Source of the DNA: a virus
Lineage: Duplodnaviria; Caudoviricetes
Reading direction: 5' to 3' (one strand)
Length of the DNA: 64,000 nucleotides
Virus record (IMG/VR): IMGVR_UViG_3300033121_002193
Location: 71,486-135,485 of that record
Below, one piece after another: positions 2,484 to 30,642 of this stretch. The position numbers and the translations under genes were made by a program. Under the pieces are notes generated by a model, which was not told the origin of the DNA, ran no database searches, and saw only the letters and a list, made by a program, of their open reading frames with translations. How positions within the stretch are numbered: the first letter of the stretch is position 1; the number at the start of each line of letters is the position of its first letter.

Positions 2484-3557
2484 ATGTCAAATAATAACAC
2501 ACACTTAACTCAACAAAATACATTAACACAAATTGAAACATTTTACGATGAAGCAAAGACAAAAATACAAGAACGATATTATTTAGATGAAAATGGTTTA
2601 AAGCAAGGTATGTACGAATCATTTTACGAAAACGGGGTACTAAAAGTTAAATGCTTTTATAAAAATGGCAAATTAGATGGCCCATACGAGGAATTCTGCT
2701 ACAACAGTCAACCAGCAACTAAATGTACCTACAAAGACGATAAACGAGATGGTTTATACAAGTCGTTTTACGAAAACGGGGTACTAAAAGTTAAATGCTT
2801 TTATAAAAATGGCAAATTAGATGGTTTATATGAAGAGTTTTACGAAAATGGAAAGCTAAGAGAAAGATGTAATTATAAAAATGATAAACTAAATGGTTTA
2901 TATGAAGAGTTTTATGAAAATGGTCAATTAGAAATAAGATACACTTGCAAAGATGGTATATACGATGGTTTATATGAAGAGTTTTACGAAAATGGCAAGC
3001 TAAGAGAAAGATGTAATTATAAAAATGGTTTAAGACAAGGTATGTACGAATCATTTTACGAAAATAGTCAGCTAGAAAAGAAAGGCACCTACAAAAATGG
3101 CAAATTAGATGGTTTATATGAATGGTTTTACGAAAATGGCAAGCTAAAAGAAAGATGCACCTATAAAAATGATAAACTAAATGGTTTATTTGAAGAGTTT
3201 TATGAAAATGGTCAGTTAAGTGAAAGATGTAATTATAAAAATGATAAACTAAATGGTTTATTTGAAGAGTTTTATGAAAATGGCAAGCTAAGAGAAAGAT
3301 ACACCTATAAAAATGATAAACTAAATGGTTTATTTGAAGAGTTTTACGAAAATGGCAAGCTAAGAGAAAAATACACCTACAAAGATGATAAAAAAAAGGG
3401 TTTATATGAATCATTTCACATAAATGGGCAATTAAAAGCAAAATTTACCTATAAAGATGGGAAATTAGAAGGGGCGATCGAACAGTTTCTTGAAGATGGT
3501 AAAAAAATAGCAGAATATGCATACAAAGATGGCGACATACATATAAAAATAGAATAG
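2484..3557 (+). CDS. MORN-variant repeat protein (YwqK-like), about 13 repeats of 24 aa
   Basis: Repeats of GLYEEFYENGKLRERCxYKNDKL, with 72-bp tandem DNA units. Confidence 0.9.
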   Translation: MSNNNTHLTQQNTLTQIETFYDEAKTKIQERYYLDENGLKQGMYESFYENGVLKVKCFYKNGKLDGPYEEFCYNSQPATKCTYKDDKRDGLYKSFYENGVLKVKCFYKNGKLDGLYEEFYENGKLRERCNYKNDKLNGLYEEFYENGQLEIRYTCKDGIYDGLYEEFYENGKLRERCNYKNGLRQGMYESFYENSQLEKKGTYKNGKLDGLYEWFYENGKLKERCTYKNDKLNGLFEEFYENGQLSERCNYKNDKLNGLFEEFYENGKLRERYTYKNDKLNGLFEEFYENGKLREKYTYKDDKKKGLYESFHINGQLKAKFTYKDGKLEGAIEQFLEDGKKIAEYAYKDGDIHIKIE

Positions 3558-3603
3558 AAATACCATAATTTTAAACACTAATTTCACTTTTTTTTGAAAA
3601 TAC

Positions 3604-3712
3604 TTCATTCGCTTACTTGACACAAAAATCATTTGTGATATTATTTGAATATAAGTTGATGGATGAATGATTCAAACATTAACGAACAACGCTGAAAAAA
3701 AGAGAGATTAAA
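3604..3712 (+). promoter_or_regulatory. Promoter/stem-loop/leader repeat, copy 2
   Basis: TTGACA 3617-3622, TGaTATTAT, same leader. Confidence 0.9.
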
Positions 3713-4191
3713 ATGACAAATTTAAATACATACACAATCAAAAACACAAACAATCAAGTTATTTTTTCTGGTCAATTCAATTCATTCAAAGAATGTATAG
3801 AAACTGCCGTAGAAAGAAAAATTAATCTAGAAAGTGCTTATTTAGAAAGTGCTTATTTAGAAGGTGCTAATCTAGAAGGTGCCAATTTAGAAGGTGCTAA
3901 TTTAAGTTATGCTAATTTATACAAATGCAATTTAGAAAGTGCTAATTTAAAAGGTGCTAATTTAGAAAATTCTAATTTAGAACATGCTAATTTAGAAAAT
4001 GCTGATTTATACAAATGCAATTTAGAAAGCGCTAATTTACAAGATGCTGTTTTAGAAAATGCTTATTTACAAAATGCTAATTTAGAAGGTGCTGAGTTAT
4101 ACAAATGCAATTTAGAACATGCTAATTTAGAACATGCTAATTTAATGTTGCCAATTTAAAAGGTGCAAAGCTAGCAAATGTAAAATTTTAA
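3713..4191 (+). CDS. pentapeptide-repeat protein, frameshifted near the C-terminus
   Basis: A(N/Y)LExx repeats; the ORF stops at 4159 but ANLKGAKLANVKF* continues in another frame to 4191. Confidence 0.85.
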
Positions 4192-4236
4192 TACAAAAAA
4201 CAACTAACTAGAGACAATTAGAATGAGATGATTAAA

Positions 4237-4485
4237 ATGACAAACACGAACAATAACACAAACTTAACCAAAATTGAAAAATGTGTTGATTATGCAAAAA
4301 CAACTGTTAAATTTAAATACTATATAGATAAAAATGGCTTAAAACAAGGCTTATATGAATTGTTTTGCGAAGATGGTCAGCTAGACGAACGATGTACTTA
4401 TAAAAATGACGATTTACACGGCATATTAGAATTGTTTGACAATCAAGGAAAATTTGAATTTAGCTGTAACTACTATACCAAATAA
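4237..4485 (+). CDS. short MORN-variant repeat protein
   Basis: YYIDKNGLKQGLYELFCEDGQLDERCTYKN. Confidence 0.75.
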   Translation: MTNTNNNTNLTKIEKCVDYAKTTVKFKYYIDKNGLKQGLYELFCEDGQLDERCTYKNDDLHGILELFDNQGKFEFSCNYYTK

Positions 4486-4496
4486 ACCATAAACAA

Positions 4497-4991
4497 ATGA
4501 AAACTACAATATTAACATTTCTAATATTAATAAGCGTAATAAATATTTTACATGCACAAACTTCAATTAATGCTTTTATTTTGAATTGTAACGATGGGGA
4601 CACTTGTAAAATGAAAGTCAATAATCAAATTATCAAAATTAGATTAGTTGGCATTGATGCCCCAGAGTTAAAACACGGGAAAAAAACAGCACAACCTTAT
4701 GCGCAAAAAAGCAAAAACGAATTGAACAACTTAATTAAAGATAAAAATGTATTGGTTAAATTATACAAAAAAGATATATATAAAAGATATTTAGGCGAAA
4801 TATTTTATAAAAATATTAACGTAAATCTAAAAATGCTAGAAATAGGCGCTGCCGAAGTTTACAGGGGTAAAAACGAAAAATCAATTGATTTAAATACATA
4901 TATCGAAAAAGAAAACGTAGCCAAGCAAAATCATATTGGCATATGGAATAACAAAAACTATGAAAGCCCCTTTATTTTTAGAAAAAAATAA
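4497..4991 (+). CDS. thermonuclease (SNase-like) with N-terminal signal/TM segment
   Basis: DGDT, IRLVGIDAPE, DIYKRYLG and GIW motifs. Confidence 0.92.
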   Translation: MKTTILTFLILISVINILHAQTSINAFILNCNDGDTCKMKVNNQIIKIRLVGIDAPELKHGKKTAQPYAQKSKNELNNLIKDKNVLVKLYKKDIYKRYLGEIFYKNINVNLKMLEIGAAEVYRGKNEKSIDLNTYIEKENVAKQNHIGIWNNKNYESPFIFRKK

Positions 4992-4998
4992 AAAAATC

Positions 4999-5111
4999 TT
5001 CATTCACTTGCTTGACATAAAAATCATTTGTGGTATTATTTAAATATAAGTTGATGGATGAATGATTCAAACATTAACGAACAACGCTGAAAAAAAAGAG
5101 AAATATTACAC
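4999..5111 (+). promoter_or_regulatory. Promoter/stem-loop/leader repeat, copy 3
   Basis: TTGACA 5012-5017, TGgTATTAT, same leader. Confidence 0.9.
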
Positions 5112-5591
5112 ATGAAAACATACGAAATCTTAAACACAAACAATGAAGTTATTTTTTCTGGTCAATTTAATTCATTTAAAGAATGTGTTGCAGCCGCTAC
5201 CCAAAATGGTATTGATTCACCTGGCAAATATTACAAAACTTTTTATGACAATGGCCAATTAAAATCAAAATTTATCTACTTAGATAATACTGTAGATGGT
5301 TTATATGAATCTTTTTATAACAATGGTCAGTTAAGTTTAAAATGCACATACAAAGATGGTAGACTAGACGGATTATATGAAAGTTTTTGGGAAAATGGTA
5401 ACATTGAAATAAAATGTACATACAAAAACGGCAAAAAAAATGGTTTTTATGAAAGATTTCACGAAAATGGACAATTAGCAATAAGATGCACATTTGTAGA
5501 TAACAGAAAAGAAGGGATGTGTGAAGCGTTTCATGAAGATGGAAAAGTAAGTATAAAAGGATCATACAAAAATAACATATATATATTTTAA
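5112..5591 (+). CDS. chimeric MORN-variant repeat protein
   Basis: N-terminus MKTYEILNTNNEVIFSGQFNSFKECV is shared with the pentapeptide genes and is followed by MORN-like repeats. Confidence 0.85.
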   Translation: MKTYEILNTNNEVIFSGQFNSFKECVAAATQNGIDSPGKYYKTFYDNGQLKSKFIYLDNTVDGLYESFYNNGQLSLKCTYKDGRLDGLYESFWENGNIEIKCTYKNGKKNGFYERFHENGQLAIRCTFVDNRKEGMCEAFHEDGKVSIKGSYKNNIYIF

Positions 5592-5645
5592 TATAAAAAT
5601 CAAACCAACATAAACTAGAGATAATTTAAAACGGGAGATACTAAT

Positions 5646-5867
5646 ATGACAAATTTAACAGTAACACAAAGATTAACTTTAGAAATAACTTCACTTGTAA
5701 AAACATTTGATAATTACACAGTAGAAACCGAACAAGATTTAATTAAAAAAGAAGTTTGTAGAAGGATCGCTGTTTCATCTGCTAAAATTGCACACTATGC
5801 AAACAACGGCAAAATTGCACATGCAGAGATTGAAGAATTAAAAAATATAGCGGATGTTTTTTCTTAA
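5646..5867 (+). CDS. hypothetical protein
   Basis: 73-aa ORF with GGGAG RBS. Confidence 0.7.
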   Translation: MTNLTVTQRLTLEITSLVKTFDNYTVETEQDLIKKEVCRRIAVSSAKIAHYANNGKIAHAEIEELKNIADVFS

Positions 5868-5873
5868 AAATAA

Positions 5874-5984
5874 TTCATTCACTTACTTGACATAAAAATC
5901 ATTTGTGGTATTATTTAAATATAAGTTGATGGATGAATGATTCAAACATTAACGAACAACGCTGAAAAAAAGAGAGAGATAAAA
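5874..5984 (+). promoter_or_regulatory. Promoter/stem-loop/leader repeat, copy 4
   Basis: TTGACA 5887-5892, TGgTATTAT, same leader. Confidence 0.9.
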
Positions 5985-6425
5985 ATGAAAACATACGAAA
6001 TCTTAAACACAAACAATCAAGTTATTTTTTCTGGTCAATTCAATTCATTCAAAGAATGTGTTGAAACTGCTGTAGAAAGAAAAATTTCTTTAAAAAATGC
6101 TAATTTAGAAGGTGCTAATTTAAGATATGCTAATTTACAAGATACCAATTTAGAAAATGCTAATTTAAGATATGCTAATTTAAGATATGCTAATTTAGAA
6201 CGTGCTAATTTACAAGATGCCAATTTAGAAGGTGCTAATTTAGCACGTGCCAATTTAGAAAATGCTAATTTAGAACGTGCTAATTTAAGATATGCTAATT
6301 TAGAACGTGCTAATTTAGAACGTGCTAATTTAGAACGTGCTAATTTAAGATATGCTAATTTAGAACGTGCTAATTTAGAACGTGCTAATTTAGAACGTGC
6401 TAATTTATTAAATATAAATTTTTAA
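5985..6425 (+). CDS. pentapeptide-repeat protein
   Basis: More than 20 ANLxx repeats, with 15-bp tandem units gctaatttagaacgt / gctaatttaagatat. Confidence 0.92.
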   Translation: MKTYEILNTNNQVIFSGQFNSFKECVETAVERKISLKNANLEGANLRYANLQDTNLENANLRYANLRYANLERANLQDANLEGANLARANLENANLERANLRYANLERANLERANLERANLRYANLERANLERANLERANLLNINF

Positions 6426-6459
6426 TAAAAAAACTAATTTCACTTTTTTTTGAAAATAA

Positions 6460-6569
6460 TTCATTCACTTACTTGACACAAAAATCATTTGTGATATTAT
6501 TTAAATATAAGTTGATGGATGAATGATTCAAACATTAACGAACAACGCTGAAAAAAAGAAAGATAAAAA
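6460..6569 (+). promoter_or_regulatory. Promoter/stem-loop/leader repeat, copy 5
   Basis: TTGACA 6473-6478, TGaTATTAT, same leader. Confidence 0.9.
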
Positions 6570-6954
6570 ATGACAAATACAAACAATAGTACAAACTTAA
6601 AATTAATTGAAACATTTTACGACAAAGCAAAGACAATTATAAAAGAACGATATTACATAGATGAAAATGGCTTTAGACAAGGTATGTACGAAGAGTTTTA
6701 CGAAAATGGAAAACTTAAAACTAAATGCACATTTAAAGATGATAAAATGGAATCTCTATCTGATCATTTTTATAAAAATGATCAGATAGAGATTCATGCT
6801 CTATTCGAATTATTTAAAGAGTATAGCAGATATTGTAAAAAGATGCACCTATAAAGATGATAAATTAGATGGTTTGTATGAATCGTTTTGCGAAGATGGT
6901 CGGTCTTATATGAAATTCACTTATGAAAATGGTCAGTTAATAACAAAAATTTAA
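6570..6954 (+). pseudogene. MORN-variant repeat gene with frameshift at about 6840
   Basis: The ORF stops at 6854; RCTYKDDKLDGLYESFCEDG...QLITKI* continues in another frame to 6954. Confidence 0.75.
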
Positions 6955-8758: not shown

Positions 8759-9562
8759 ATGATTAAAATACCAGAAGAAAACAAACATTTTTCTAAAAAA
8801 TCTTTAGTACAAACATTAAAGAATACACAACCAATCCCATTTCCTGTTCCAAAAAAAAACAATATTCCTAAGACTTTTATATTAGCAATAGGAGTAGACG
8901 GTTTTGATAAGGAAAATCAATTATTTTTTGCAGCTAAAGACGCACAAGATTTTGCTGATAAAATCGCATTAAACAATTCAAGAAAACAAACTTTTAGTAT
9001 TGTATTAAAAAACAATTACGCGACTAATATAAGTATCATGTCTGCGTTTAAATGGATTGAACAAAGTGCAGAAGAACAAGATGATGTTCATATCTTATTT
9101 TCTGGACATGGCACTGTTGATTTTGCAACTTTAAGATATTATTTTTTGTCTTATTCTCCAAAACAAAAACTTACATCCGACAGTTTATTGTCTGATGTTT
9201 GGATATCCAGTCTAATTGGAAATATCAAAGGAAACGTTAGATTTTTTCTAGATAGTTGCTTTAGTAATAATTTCAATGACTATTTAATTAATTATCACCC
9301 TAAAATAAAATCACAACAATTATCTTCTTATTCTTCTTCTTTGTCTTGGAAAATGTCATACGAAAATATTCCGTTTAAAAATGGTTTTTTTACCAAATCT
9401 ATTTTAAATGCGTTAGATAGAAATCAATATATTTTCAAATATACTAAACAAACAGAAAAGCAATTAGGCCTAAGGCTTGATTGGAATCTTTTTGAATTAA
9501 GCAAAGGACTTCAAGGCTCTGGATTTTTTTATTGTACACAGCAACAACAAAAAATAAAATAA
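8759..9562 (+). CDS. caspase-like protease (peptidase C14)
   Basis: LAIGVD, KDAQDF, catalytic FSGHG and LDSCFS motifs. Confidence 0.88.
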   Translation: MIKIPEENKHFSKKSLVQTLKNTQPIPFPVPKKNNIPKTFILAIGVDGFDKENQLFFAAKDAQDFADKIALNNSRKQTFSIVLKNNYATNISIMSAFKWIEQSAEEQDDVHILFSGHGTVDFATLRYYFLSYSPKQKLTSDSLLSDVWISSLIGNIKGNVRFFLDSCFSNNFNDYLINYHPKIKSQQLSSYSSSLSWKMSYENIPFKNGFFTKSILNALDRNQYIFKYTKQTEKQLGLRLDWNLFELSKGLQGSGFFYCTQQQQKIK

Positions 9563-9572
9563 CATGTTTTAT

Positions 9573-9638
9573 TTGCAATGCAATTTTATGTGTGATATAC
9601 TTGTCTCATAAAACGCTGAAAAAAAAAGAGAGATAAAA
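9573..9638 (+). promoter_or_regulatory. partial sixth copy of the leader repeat with its own promoter
   Basis: TTGCAA...TGaTATACT, then aacgctgaaaaaaaaagagagataaaaATG identical to the 3' end of copy 1. Confidence 0.7.
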
Positions 9639-10247
9639 ATGAATTTAAAAAATATAATTACATTATTAATATTACTAACAAGCATTAATTGTAATGGTAT
9701 TTCAAAAATAAAATTAAAATACTATGATTCAAATTCTGAAAATGAACAGATGTTATTATTAGATAGCGCAAAGAAGTTTAATGCTCTTATCGGTTGTGAG
9801 GCAGTAACTTTAGAACATGTAGAAAAAACAAAAGAAGCGATTATTGGCAACGGAATTTCTGAAATTCAAATATTAGAATCAAATGTCATGAATATTTTGG
9901 CTGAAAAATCAGCGGCAGCATATGGAATAGACAAAGCAGCTGCAGTTACTTTTTTTGAAGATGATGATGTGTTTATCTCTAGACATAAATTAACGGATTG
10001 TTATTATGAAGACTTTGGACAGTGTGTTTATCTTAAAATAGACATTGTGTTTTTTCATGAAATTGGGCATGTATTTGGATTAATGCATAGTGAAAATGAA
10101 AGCGATATTATGAATAAAATACCGGCAAACAAACATTCTGCTAATGATTTTATTGATTTTATTAATCAGTTACAAACAAAAACAAATATTTGTGATAAAA
10201 AAATAAATACTAATACGTTTTTAACAATACAGAGAGATAAACAATGA
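9639..10247 (+). CDS. matrixin-like (metzincin) metalloprotease, probably exported or a lipoprotein
   Basis: HEIGHVFGLMH, Met-turn DIM, hydrophobic N-terminus ending in Cys. Confidence 0.85.
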   Translation: MNLKNIITLLILLTSINCNGISKIKLKYYDSNSENEQMLLLDSAKKFNALIGCEAVTLEHVEKTKEAIIGNGISEIQILESNVMNILAEKSAAAYGIDKAAAVTFFEDDDVFISRHKLTDCYYEDFGQCVYLKIDIVFFHEIGHVFGLMHSENESDIMNKIPANKHSANDFIDFINQLQTKTNICDKKINTNTFLTIQRDKQ

Positions 10248-10684: not shown

Positions 10685-10785
10685 TTAACAGCTGAATTAA
10701 TTAAATCAAAGGAAAATTATGCAATTAATATTAACAGAAACATTTTGGGATTTACATAGATTTAAACTAAAAGAACGCTATTACA

Positions 10786-11286
10786 TTGCTCGAGTTACAA
10801 AAGCTCATGTATTTTATGCAAGAGACGGGAGAGCCTTTGAAGCTCCACTTTAAAAAAGCGCTATATGGACCATATGCTGAAAACCTAAGGCATGTGCTCA
10901 ACTATATTGAAGGGCATTTTGTCAGTGGTTATCTTGATGGCGGCGATGATCCGACCAAGCCTTTAGAACTCAAGCCCAACGCTGTTCAAGAAGCGGAGCT
11001 TTACCTCAAAAATCACCCTGCAACCAATGAGCGGTTGGAACGGGTCACCCAGCTTATTCAAGGATTTGAGACGCCCTACGGAATGGAGCTATTGTCTACA
11101 GTTTATTGGATAGCCAAAGATAAAAATGTGTTGGATGCAGAACAGGTCGTTAATGAATTTCATAATTTGAACGAGCGTAAACGCATGTTTAGTAGCGAGC
11201 ATATTATGGTTACCCTAAAAACACTTCGTATTAAGCATTGGATAAAATCGTTATCAATTAAATTCGGAAGGAGAAGAAATTCATAA
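10786..11286 (+). CDS. DarG antitoxin C-terminal domain, truncated copy 1 (possibly a pseudogene)
   Basis: LQKLMYFMQETGEPLKL..KALYGPYAENLRHVL..IEGH...GFETPYGMELLSTVYW; TTG start only. Confidence 0.7.
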   Translation: MLELQKLMYFMQETGEPLKLHFKKALYGPYAENLRHVLNYIEGHFVSGYLDGGDDPTKPLELKPNAVQEAELYLKNHPATNERLERVTQLIQGFETPYGMELLSTVYWIAKDKNVLDAEQVVNEFHNLNERKRMFSSEHIMVTLKTLRIKHWIKSLSIKFGRRRNS

Positions 11287-11288
11287 AA

Positions 11289-11489
11289 ATGAAAATTTTA
11301 CTAGACATAAAACCTGCCAAAGACAATTACTGTGGAGATGGGAACGGTAATTTTTGTCCTTTTATGTTAAAAAGGAAATTTGGCACAATCCCATTCTGTT
11401 CCGTTTTCGATAAGGATTTGCCAATAACAAATAGAAAAATAACCAGGCTAGAAGAATGCGTTTGTTCCACAGCGAGTGGATTGTTATAA
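11289..11489 (+). CDS. small Cys-rich hypothetical protein
   Basis: 66-aa ORF with spaced cysteines. Confidence 0.6.
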   Translation: MKILLDIKPAKDNYCGDGNGNFCPFMLKRKFGTIPFCSVFDKDLPITNRKITRLEECVCSTASGLL

Positions 11490-11618
11490 AGAAAGTTAAT
11501 TTTATGCTATTAACAGAAATAAGAGACTACATTGCTTCAAATGCCGAGAATATTTTGTTCCACCCGTCAGATATGGTTGGGAATGAGATAAAATTTTAAT
11601 AATAAGAAGGGACTATAT

Positions 11619-12083
11619 ATGTATGTTGTTGAAGATTTAAATAAACTTGCGAGTTTGCTTGGTCGATTCAGGATTGACAGACTTACAGTATATCTAAATA
11701 AATATGATTTGTATGAAGCCCAGAAAAACATAGGCGATAAAATTGTATACCCTATTGTTGTATGGGGAAAAAATAATATTTTTACGACTGGAACTCTACA
11801 CATCAAAGGAGTAGAAGAACAAGACAATGAATCAATCTCCGACGGAGTTAGCTTTGATCATTTCATCCCTCTACCAAGTCTATGCTTAAATCCATCCAAT
11901 GAGCACCCCGATAGCGTAGAGTATAGGACAAAAACGACTATAAATGGAGTCCAATATTGTGCATCAACAATTTTGCCAACAGACTTCATCAAAAATGAGG
12001 GAGACATAAACGCCATCCGCCAAGTGCATAAAGAAAAAATATTAAAATCAGTTTTAGAAAAATCAAAAGATGGCTATACATAG
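11619..12083 (+). CDS. hypothetical protein
   Basis: 154-aa ORF with AAGGGA RBS. Confidence 0.65.
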   Translation: MYVVEDLNKLASLLGRFRIDRLTVYLNKYDLYEAQKNIGDKIVYPIVVWGKNNIFTTGTLHIKGVEEQDNESISDGVSFDHFIPLPSLCLNPSNEHPDSVEYRTKTTINGVQYCASTILPTDFIKNEGDINAIRQVHKEKILKSVLEKSKDGYT

Positions 12084-12223
12084 TATGCAATTTTATCGGT
12101 ATGGTTCTTGTTATGGTGTGAGTTTGGACATTATAAATTTATTAAGGCAATAGGAAGCAAGTGGGCGCCAATGCCAAAATTTCCAGCGAATGAACTAGAT
12201 TTAAAATGAGCTAAGTTTTTTAG

Positions 12224-12445
12224 ATGGACGGAGATCCCATGATGAAAAATAAAGAACACCAAAGCTTATGGACGGTGATAAAAAAATCAGGCCTATTTTC
12301 TCAGAACCCAGTTAGAATGACATATGAAATATCATATGAACAATTAATGATATTATGTGAAATACTGAATGGGCCTGGGAATAGAAAAACACTGCGAAGA
12401 AAAATAATAAAGATGTTTAGGCCAATAAAATGCGAAAAACAATAG
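12224..12445 (+). CDS. hypothetical protein
   Basis: 73-aa ORF; the start may be at the MM after GGAG. Confidence 0.55.
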   Translation: MDGDPMMKNKEHQSLWTVIKKSGLFSQNPVRMTYEISYEQLMILCEILNGPGNRKTLRRKIIKMFRPIKCEKQ

Positions 12446-12552
12446 GTGTGAAATGTGTACGCCTGTACCATTAGCGCCGATTGATTAGGCAACATTATGA
12501 TAGGGGATTAGATGAGAATGTTGAAAATTTTAACAACAAGAAGAGATTCCAT

Positions 12553-13173
12553 ATGTGTGTTGCTGAAGATTTAAATAAAGAGAATTTTGCCGAACGGCAG
12601 ATCCCGGAGATGACCATCGGCCACGCAGCACTAGTAATGCTAATGCGTCGTTATTTAAGCGCCTTGATGGATCCAACTATTACATTGCTCGAGTTACAAA
12701 AGCTCATGTATTTTATGCAAGAGACGGGAGAGCCTTTGAAGCTCCACTTTAAAAAAGCGCTATATGGACCATATGCTGAAAACCTAAGGCATGTGCTCAA
12801 CTATATTGAAGGGCATTTTGTCAGTGGTTATCTTGATGGCGGCGATGATCCGACCAAGCCTTTAGAACTCAAGCCCAACGCTGTTCAAGAAGCGGAGCTT
12901 TACCTCAAAAATCACCCTGCAACCAATGAGCGGTTGGAACGGGTCACCCAGCTTATTCAAGGATTTGAGACGCCCTACGGAATGGAGCTATTGTCTACAG
13001 TTTATTGGATAGCCAAAGATAAAAATGTGTTGGATGCAGAACAGGTCGTTAATGAATTTCATAATTTGAACGAGCGTAAACGTATGTTTAGTAGCGAGCA
13101 TATTATGGTTACCCTAAAAACACTTCGTATTAAGCATTGGATAAAACCAGTATTATGTAGCAGCTACACCTAA
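12553..13173 (+). CDS. DarG antitoxin C-terminal (toxin-binding) domain without macrodomain, copy 2
   Basis: IPEMTIGHAALVMLMRRYLSALMDPTITLLELQKLMYFMQ...; the ATG 12553 context is homologous to the start of 11619. Confidence 0.8.
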   Translation: MCVAEDLNKENFAERQIPEMTIGHAALVMLMRRYLSALMDPTITLLELQKLMYFMQETGEPLKLHFKKALYGPYAENLRHVLNYIEGHFVSGYLDGGDDPTKPLELKPNAVQEAELYLKNHPATNERLERVTQLIQGFETPYGMELLSTVYWIAKDKNVLDAEQVVNEFHNLNERKRMFSSEHIMVTLKTLRIKHWIKPVLCSSYT

Positions 13174-14729: not shown

Positions 14730-15995
14730 ATGACAATGATTGCTATTAACAGTTATGAACAACAAAATTACCCAATGCTTACTAGAAGTTTACGAAATGC
14801 AACTGTAGGGTTGTATCGAAAAACTTCAAAAACAAAACAAATAACTCTTAAAAAGAACAACAAGGAATCCTTTAATCAACAAGAACAACTTGAAATTGAA
14901 GATTATGACATTACATCTGTTCCTAATGATTTTAATGTTGCGACCATTTTTTCACAAATCGAAAAAGGAAGTTTAAAAATCCCCCCTTTTCAAAGAAATT
15001 ATGTTTGGGACATTAAAAGAGCAAGCAAATTAATAGAATCTATTTTAAGAGGTTTGCCTATTCCTCAAATATTTTTATACGAAACAGAAAAAAAGGAATA
15101 TTTAGTAATTGATGGACAACAAAGATTGATGTCTATTTATTATTTTATGAAAATGATGTTTCCTGTAAAAGAAAAAAGAGCGGAATTAAGAAAACAATGT
15201 GATTCAGGCCATGTTTCTGAAAAACTTTTACAAAACGATACTTACTTTAAAACATTTAAGCTAAAATTGCCTGATAATGTATTAGGAAAACCAAACAAAT
15301 TTAAAAATTTGACATATGAAACTTTAAGTGAAGTAGATAAAGAAACTTTTGAATTAAGTCCGATTCGTTGTGTTGTTATTAAACAAAACAAAATACATGC
15401 AGATGATTCGTGTGTATTTGAAATATTTCATAGACTTAATTCTGGTGGGATAAATTTACATCCACAAGAAATAAGAATGAGTTTATACTATTCTCGGTTT
15501 TTTGAAACATTAAACAACTTAAATAACCAACCTGAATGGAGACGTTTATTTTGCTTAGAAAACCCAGAATTTCACACAAAAGATATTGAAACAATTTTAC
15601 GCGGTTTTGCTTTGCTAGAATGGGAAGATAAATACACCCCTTCATTGATTAAATTTTTAAACAATTATAGCAAAAAAAGCCAATCAAACACCGATGAAGA
15701 AAATAATTATATGAAATGTTTGTTTTTATCTTTTTTGCAAGCAACAAAGAAATTGCCAAAAAACGCTTTTATACGCAATGATAAATTTAATTTAACTTTA
15801 TTTGAATCTGTTTTTGTTGCAACTTGCACCAATGCATTTAAAACAAAAACAATTGTCACTAACAGTATTGATTATGACAAGATTATGGAACTGTCAACTG
15901 ATTCTGTGTTTCTAGAGGCGGCACAAAAAAACACAACCTCTACTATAAATGTCAAAAAAAGAATTTTACGCGCAATCCAAATTTTAAATACCTAA
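14730..15995 (+). CDS. DUF262 (ParB/Srx-like, GmrS-type) protein
   Basis: IPPFQRNYVW, LIESI, IDGQQRL and EIFHRLNSGG motifs; no HNH/DUF1524 domain. Confidence 0.9.
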   Translation: MTMIAINSYEQQNYPMLTRSLRNATVGLYRKTSKTKQITLKKNNKESFNQQEQLEIEDYDITSVPNDFNVATIFSQIEKGSLKIPPFQRNYVWDIKRASKLIESILRGLPIPQIFLYETEKKEYLVIDGQQRLMSIYYFMKMMFPVKEKRAELRKQCDSGHVSEKLLQNDTYFKTFKLKLPDNVLGKPNKFKNLTYETLSEVDKETFELSPIRCVVIKQNKIHADDSCVFEIFHRLNSGGINLHPQEIRMSLYYSRFFETLNNLNNQPEWRRLFCLENPEFHTKDIETILRGFALLEWEDKYTPSLIKFLNNYSKKSQSNTDEENNYMKCLFLSFLQATKKLPKNAFIRNDKFNLTLFESVFVATCTNAFKTKTIVTNSIDYDKIMELSTDSVFLEAAQKNTTSTINVKKRILRAIQILNT

Positions 15996-29556: not shown

Positions 29557-30642
29557 TCACATGATAAGAGGCGGTAATACTGTCAAACGATTTTTTTTGT
29601 ATTGTCCATCTTCTTTAGTCAGGTCAACCGTGCTGGTAGAATCTTTGTGTTCGTCGCATAGTTTCTGCGTCAAGTGGACAACGGGCACACCTGCTTTTTC
29701 TGCAATAGAGCGCAACTGCGGCGTAAAATCACAACATTTTTGAATAATAAATGGATCCGATTTTTCAAATAACTGCTTGAATTCGTCTTCTGTGATGGCC
29801 ATGTTGCGAAGCACGGCAAATTGCTGAAATTTTCTTACACTATGATTAACATCACTTATCCATTTTTCGGTAGATTTGGAAAATTTAGTTTCACCGGTGT
29901 TGTTCATTTCATTTTTTAAACCACCGCCATTAAATCTTTTGGCCATTTGAACAACAAGTCCCAAAAACTTAGGTTTAAAACTTAAACCGTTAAGATTTTT
30001 TGTAGTTTGGTAATCACCCAGCAACCTAATCCAATTTTGAAAAATAGAACTTAAGTTATCAATCGCTTGCAATGAAAAAAATGCAGGAGAAACAGGTGCA
30101 ATAAAGTAATCTGTGAGCATCATAATCATAGCATTAATGATACTGCTAGCACTTGGAGATGTATCAATCAAAATGAAATCATAGTTCTTTTTTTGTTTGT
30201 TAATAGATTGCTCCAACTTGCCCGGTATGTCGTTAGTAAAATCATTTTTAAGCTTAATAATGCTATAGAGATCGGCTTCTGTATTAGACAAATTAATCGA
30301 ACCAGAAATCAAATCCAAACGTCCTTCCTGGGCTTGTTTTGATTGAATACTTAGAAATATTTTATTACATTGTGATTGCTTTAGGTTAACATCTAAATAC
30401 TCAGATAAAGAAATATACTTCTCAATGTTTTCACTCCATCTTGAATCTGCATCGGTTGAGTACTCAATGCTTGTAAAGAGTCCGTATAAGGCCGCAGTTA
30501 AATTCATCTGTGGGTCGGCATCAATAAGCAGCACCTTGCATCCTTTATCTGCTAAAATATAGCCTAAATTATGCACTAAAGTGGTTTTACCTACCCCGCC
30601 TTTATGATTAAAAAATGTGACTATTTTGCCCACAATACTCAT
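29557..30642 (-). CDS. ParA/Soj-family ATPase (likely acquired; C-terminal frameshift in an A8 run)
   Basis: NHKGGVGKTT, IDADPQMNLT and DFILIDTSP motifs; higher GC than neighbours. Confidence 0.88.
   Translation of the reverse strand: MSIVGKIVTFFNHKGGVGKTTLVHNLGYILADKGCKVLLIDADPQMNLTAALYGLFTSIEYSTDADSRWSENIEKYISLSEYLDVNLKQSQCNKIFLSIQSKQAQEGRLDLISGSINLSNTEADLYSIIKLKNDFTNDIPGKLEQSINKQKKNYDFILIDTSPSASSIINAMIMMLTDYFIAPVSPAFFSLQAIDNLSSIFQNWIRLLGDYQTTKNLNGLSFKPKFLGLVVQMAKRFNGGGLKNEMNNTGETKFSKSTEKWISDVNHSVRKFQQFAVLRNMAITEDEFKQLFEKSDPFIIQKCCDFTPQLRSIAEKAGVPVVHLTQKLCDEHKDSTSTVDLTKEDGQYKKNRLTVLPPLIM

Follow-up and report, generated by a model that had tools for sequence, protein, structure and literature searches.

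The open reading frame at 12553-13173 (plus strand) of the window, by which we mean the whole 64,000-nucleotide stretch analysed here (positions 71,486 to 135,485 of the virus record IMGVR_UViG_3300033121_002193), starts with ATG and stays intact over 206 codons. Its product is a complete DarG2 C-terminal, DarT-binding domain that stands alone with no macrodomain, which makes the gene a candidate for a stoichiometric anti-DarT2 factor. The best-supported reading is that of a decoy for DarT2: with a probability of roughly two in three, the protein is an orphan antitoxin made during infection that acts stoichiometrically, one-to-one with the DarT2 of the host. This reading is favoured because the domain is whole, belongs to a conserved phage clade, evolves under purifying selection, has acquired new starts, has been transferred between phages and presents a conserved predicted interface. 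We infer that the copy in this phage is expressed during infection, binds the host DarT2 and rescues the phage.

Identity and fold of the protein

The 206-residue protein aligns with positions 158-338 of the 338-position NCBIfam model antitoxin_DarG (NF048014; E 6e-51), at a score of 174 bits that lies under the model's cut-off of 250. In a search of the PDB its sole significant match is 7yk3_B, the C-terminal domain of Mycobacterium tuberculosis DarG (E 5e-22), where query residues 20-189 pair with chain residues 1-183, and an AlphaFold model of the protein (pLDDT 90) superposes on 7YK3 with a TM score of 0.77. Profile and structure searches against DarG, which had been put forward as one way to check the original prediction, bear out its DarG assignment for this protein. 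The closest full-length DarGs (345 aa), which are encoded immediately after darT, are 60-64% identical to it in their C-terminal half. As no Pfam or PHROG model covers the DarG C-terminal domain found here, the domain is missed by annotation pipelines.

Measured against what makes a DarG2, the helical C-terminal DarT-binding domain is present, while the N-terminal macrodomain (the ADP-ribosyl glycohydrolase) is absent both from the reading frame and from the 135,485-bp record, and a position directly downstream of darT is found neither in that record, which is about 84% complete, nor in the loci of the phage clade. Having no macrodomain and no darT, the protein is not a DarG2.

Setting in the phage genome and missing partners

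The gene lies in a linear virus record of 135,485 bp (about 84% complete), with major head and terminase genes present in the window. As the original prediction had remarked, it is richer in GC than the phage around it, at 42% (GC3 43.5%), the median of the genome being 29% (GC3 17%), and it ranks third highest among 111 ORFs. The earlier statement that neither darT nor a macrodomain accompanies it can be extended from the window to the record as a whole (again, about 84% of a genome), which yielded neither to Pfam, tblastn and custom HMM searches; nor does any of the phage-clade loci fetched (numbered here with an L) contain a DarT or macrodomain gene. A split darG with its macrodomain elsewhere in the record was rejected on the same empty searches. 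A cognate toxin next door was likewise rejected, as the neighbours vary among the contexts of L001, L007, L009 and L017, and because the neighbouring genes change between contexts the domain gene has no private toxin partner. What is seen is what would be expected of an anti-DarT factor, namely a phage-encoded gene for which no cognate toxin gene was found in a record about 84% complete. A scan for promoters and terminators did no better than on shuffles, and the clues to the host, a type III methylase and an IS1595 transposase, have best matches that are less than 60% identical and scattered over many taxa.

The phage carries an unusually large load of defence genes (record positions 49700-70500, outside the window, and window positions 14730-15995), among them a type III restriction-modification pair, a MAD2-like methyltransferase, a Panacea-type toxin-antitoxin pair and an IrrE-like gene, accompanied by several IS elements and a GmrSD N-terminal gene. 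A gene for a ParA-family ATPase (window 29557-30642) adjoins the terminase gene and a serine recombinase is encoded at record positions 1246-2067, which together suggest a temperate or phage-plasmid lifestyle. Elsewhere, window positions 2484-6900 hold gene families with MORN-like repeats of 72 nt and with pentapeptide repeats of 15 nt, spaced by a repeated 160-bp intergenic element whose leader recurs at 9612. At 8759-10247 a 267-aa gene, by eye a caspase-like protease (no Pfam match), is followed by the gene for an M10 metallopeptidase lipoprotein, and relatives conserve both genes upstream of the DarG domain gene.

A stand-alone clade exchanged between phages

The three best matches to the protein among 5.8 billion proteins are themselves stand-alone (203-207 aa, 85-96% identity), and a gap separates them from the full DarGs that follow. 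The three 90% clusters comprise 32 stand-alone sequences, and the 23 that are listed measure 164-207 aa and have no macrodomain. In a quick tree the phage copies form one clade (SH-aLRT 99) on a stem of 0.41 changes per site, and synonymous sites between this clade and the nearest DarG are saturated. The domain gene is found in the window's own family of large phages (L007-L017, L131-L133) and also in a RecT-encoding phage (L001-L006), which outside the cassette bearing the gene shares with this record a single, distant gene (25% identical). The gene has been exchanged between two unrelated phages. Three different N-termini are attached to it, all of them entering the frame shortly before the domain begins.

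L218, a more distant relative phage, lacks the domain gene. Among 20 loci from IMG/VR, 19 encode macrodomain-fused DarG and the single orphan is L017, and scans of IMG/VR did not find the RecT phage. Among GenBank phages, the sole match is the cultured Thermus phage phiMa (L023, MH673674.1), where a complete darT-darG pair is formed by phiMa_38, annotated as hypothetical, and phiMa_39. The domain gene is flanked by hotspots, which hold, just after it, a fused restriction-methylase gene in one relative (L017:2365-4710) and, just before it, the gene for a 316-aa membrane protein in another (L009:1735-2685). The bacterial locus L020, among the closest, has a gene for an ADP-ribosylglycohydrolase (DraG/ARG) just upstream of its darT-darG pair (L020:5889-9038).

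DarT2 binding could serve the carrier state rather than lytic infection, with the gene acting as an anti-addiction or self-protection module of a prophage or plasmid. The ParA ATPase, serine recombinase, restriction systems and Panacea toxin-antitoxin pair of the record are in keeping with such a role, and orphan domains are known in bacteria too; the domain gene, however, has small accessory genes around it in either phage and a phage start cassette in front, and a constitutive inhibitor would cripple the host's own defence. We consider a carrier-state role improbable.

Duplication and probable cassette recombination

The original prediction took two ORFs, 12553-13173 and the shorter 10786-11286, to encode only the C-terminal half of DarG. 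The longer one does, but the shorter is a broken duplicate. All features described in this section lie on the plus strand. Positions 10778-11247, in which the ORF at 10786-11286 arises mechanically, repeat 12677-13146 over 470 bp with one mismatch, a stretch of 406 bp being identical in both copies. The short copy is without the first 40 or so residues. Helix 1 is missing, as are residues 32-42 of the predicted interface; the ORF would start on a TTG inside the junction, and inspection by eye shows no ribosome-binding site for it. The short copy was rejected as a second functional gene, being a 5'-truncated, out-of-frame duplicate. It is probably a pseudo-copy and recombination substrate, and its product, to judge by the sequence, would probably be inactive.

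The junctions around this copy are informative. An 86-aa phage gene, whole in L007, L009 and L017, is represented in the window by a 5' stub at 10719-10788. Its reading frame breaks off after 22 codons, at a microhomology of 7 nt (10 of 11) with the DarG domain, and mid-domain sequence follows out of frame, whereas relatives have the intact 86-aa gene followed by one copy of the domain gene. A 66-aa ORF inside the inserted segment (11289-11489) occurs in none of the fetched loci. At 11528-11542 there is a 15-nt crossover joint, where the equivalent of L001 4155-4205 switches to that of L001 2468-2518, the two 51-bp repeats that border the RecT-phage cassette; this joint reads as the junction that a tandem duplication or a circle would leave. 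Downstream follow two genes from the RecT-phage cassette, of 154 aa (11619-12083, 91% identical to L001) and 73 aa (12224-12445, 100% identical). The domain gene itself opens with a translation-start cassette (12524-12579, the 5' leader and first nine codons) that is 86% identical to 11590-11645, the leader and start of the 154-aa phage gene, and the same pair of start cassettes is present in the RecT phage. Since the leader and nine codons are common to the 154-aa gene, a phage start signal has been joined to the domain.

Positions 11485-13146 as a whole are 97% identical to the L001-L006 cassette of 154-aa gene, 73-aa gene and domain gene, and the intact gene is a hybrid allele, of donor (RecT-phage) type from 12638 to 13067 (11 informative sites) and of resident type from 13083 (3 sites). 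The simplest history would be that a donor cassette, tandem or circular, recombined into the resident locus, joining by microhomology on the left and by homology on the right. The two-copy arrangement, though not the gene, could also be an assembly chimera of two co-occurring phages, as the 406-bp stretch identical in both copies would allow. Two of the three joints, however, are held by identities of just 7-11 nt and 15 nt, below usual assembler k-mers, and the alleles change over once and cleanly between 13067 and 13083, with 11 donor sites before and 3 resident sites after. A chimera seems unlikely, if not negligibly so; the number of copies may yet prove different, and the intact domain gene stands whatever the status of the duplication.

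If the duplication is real, the 470-bp repeat would make a 1.9-kb unit amplifiable; for an inhibitor whose effect depends on dose this would be fitting, as the analogy of T4 tifA suggests. The amplification of tifA (PMC9391042) likewise concerns a counter-defence locus repeated in tandem via short microhomologies, but the arrangement here consists of one intact and one broken copy and includes DNA from another phage.

Selection and the question of a remnant

Five phage alleles of the domain gene differ by 32.5 synonymous and 42.5 non-synonymous changes (pN/pS 0.35, P 7e-6, the latter approximate because the alleles recombine), and pairwise dN/dS ranges from 0.19 to 0.50. The gene is under purifying selection, at a level that resembles neighbouring accessory genes (0.1-0.4) and is weaker than in core genes (0.00-0.04). 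The alleles have no stop codons, where about 7 would be expected under neutrality, a count without evidential weight since the alleles were found through intact proteins. One allele (L007:3493-4107, P0002 cluster) has about ten amino-acid changes clustered at residues 79-101, with loss of acidic residues, which represents either decay or a changed toxin specificity.

Orphan C-terminal domains, with no macrodomain or darT, were also seen at 2 of 80 loci from genomes and 4 of 80 from metagenomes. In bacteria they are scattered over the (quick) tree with several independent origins. In L060 the orphan comes before hsdR, in L100 it separates type III mod from res and in L125 it follows an MmeI-like gene; L127 and L222 are further restriction or defence islands that contain one. 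Intact orphans in such islands or in housekeeping contexts are those of L060:3974-4573, L100:3983-4561, L124, L125, L127, L222 and L224. They look like deletion remnants and are possibly anti-addiction modules. Two divergent domain-only proteins considered as a second phage capture were rejected because of their bacterial-looking contexts. As orphan C-terminal domains occur in bacterial restriction islands, the phage may have captured a ready-made remnant from one of them, which concerns the origin of the gene more than its present function. The idea that the phage itself domesticated the inhibitory domain thus holds as regards the conserved stand-alone phage clade, but the domain may already have been freed in a bacterial restriction island.

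A more radical proposal is that the gene is a mere passenger, the 3' half of a darG left by a deletion in a bacterial restriction or DarTG island and acquired by phages along with further genes of the island, with no anti-DarT role. Such an origin would agree with the scatter of orphan domains through bacterial restriction and defence islands, with a phage that gathers restriction-modification genes and IS elements, and with the methylase directly after the domain gene in L017. It does not sit well with purifying selection, with a stem of 0.41 changes per site and saturated dS to the nearest DarG over which the frame was never lost, with three separately built starts, or with retention in two unrelated phages despite changing flanks. 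Given its poor fit to the selection data, a functionless passenger is disfavoured and has, in our estimate, a low probability.

Predicted complex with DarT2

EPEC DarG's C-terminal domain has no hydrolase activity, and alone binds DarT and rescues toxicity in vivo (PMC7003065). With reference to the 7YK3 work, the DarG domain is said to occlude the DarT active site by ssDNA mimicry. The phage protein has the fold and nearly the boundaries of the crystallised M. tuberculosis domain and is predicted to bind the same toxin family; it differs in being without a macrodomain or darT partner, in being phage-encoded and in its new N-terminus.

The phage protein was modelled with the DarT2 of L020, which is cognate to one of the nearest DarGs. 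The complex scored 0.83 against 0.00 for the best control, although the toxin is a stand-in and a like complex has been solved, so that the score is possibly memory of 7YK3; a mark of 0.83 is attained by 58 of 80 solved pairs and by 2 of 110 mismatched pairs. Between runs at least 94% of contacts agree, with a partner pLDDT of at least 85. The modelled complex is to be taken as likeness to a solved complex, not as proof of binding. On DarT, the predicted contact involves the conserved residues R56, M83, N131 and Q169, beside the catalytic E171. On the phage protein, 21 phage alleles agree at 23 of the 29 predicted interface residues, and the central motif of the interface (residues 136-146) does not vary. 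To the nearest full DarGs, the remainder of the protein is 62% identical and the predicted interface 78% (P 0.045). Variability among the phage alleles is not significantly lower there (6 of 29 versus 41 of 148 residues, P 0.5), and the predicted interface is not clearly closer to the wider DarG family (62% versus 59% elsewhere).

The mechanism proposed is that of an orphan type II antitoxin derived from the DarT-binding half of DarG2. Infection would free the host DarT2 toxin, which the phage protein would bind one to one at the ssDNA-binding face, beside the catalytic glutamate. Phage DNA would in this way be spared ADP-ribosylation and replication could proceed.

Selection might have acted on another target, a different host toxin or some other protein, if the domain is better regarded as a distant relative of Panacea/SocA (PF13274, DUF4065). 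DUF4065 has been reported to be homologous to the DarG C-terminal domain (PMC13621843), of which Panacea would be a distant homologue that occurs alone in phages, and Panacea domains neutralise many toxin folds (PMC8832971). There is also a weak fold match of the phage protein to a viral Panacea protein (E 0.19), and the predicted interface is not specially conserved inside the phage clade. Panacea genes pair with an adjacent toxin, however, whereas no conserved toxin gene lies alongside the domain gene; a PF13274 search of the 206-residue protein gave no match at E 0.1; and the 60-64% identity to DarGs directly behind darT, together with the invariant central motif, speaks for the DarT2 target. 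Another target appears quite unlikely.

Relation to known anti-DarT factors

The anti-DarT factors published so far fall into erasers (AdfN, AdfM) and small binders without relation to DarG (AdfA, AdfB). AdfA (RB69/T4) and AdfB (ICP1 Gp145) are phage proteins thought to bind DarT directly (bioRxiv 10.1101/2023.12.14.571748); they have no DarG homology (Gp145 has 77 aa and less than 15% similarity) and are thought to be of independent origin, whereas the protein described here is the host's own binding domain. AdfN (PMC11825919) is also an orphan antitoxin co-opted from the host, but it is a NADAR enzyme directed against DarTG1. The nearest precedent is AdfM (chimallivirus gp104, T4 Tk.4; PMC13309987, PMC13716836), likewise a phage orphan DarG2-like protein that acts against DarTG2. 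AdfM is an enzymatic macrodomain that erases ADP-ribose from DNA, whereas the protein here is the non-catalytic half and could act only by binding. Phage co-option of one half of DarG2 is therefore already known for the macrodomain (PMC13309987, PMC13716836).

Searches of Pfam, NCBIfam, PHROGs, PDB and BFVD found only DarG C-terminal matches and no macrodomain, NADAR, gp61.2 or Gp145 homology, AdfA and AdfB being set apart by their description. The expectation that the protein would differ from known factors of the AdfA, AdfB or NADAR type agrees with these searches, though the list of factors behind it had missed AdfM. In literature searches, which mostly did not cover subscription journals, no report of a phage-encoded DarG C-terminal domain was found. 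The protein proposed here is best filed as one that would work like the binding arm of DarG2, and as the counterpart of AdfM among phage orphan antitoxins. The odds are somewhat better than even that it represents a fifth kind of anti-DarT factor, in which phages have domesticated the type II antitoxin domain of the defence itself as an inhibitor of DarT2 that stands alone, can be transferred and can be amplified in dose.

In the AdfB paper (bioRxiv 10.1101/2023.12.14.571748) it is called uncertain where antitoxin mimics come from. With a phage gene about 60% identical to the binding domain of a host antitoxin, a path from such an antitoxin to counter-defence becomes traceable. The gene opens to direct test whether binding alone is sufficient in infection, how broad the range of toxins is, and whether loss of the macrodomain lets the inhibitor evade whatever frees DarT from DarG. 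If the domestication reading is true, orphan domains in bacterial islands would be a reservoir of DarT2 inhibitors.
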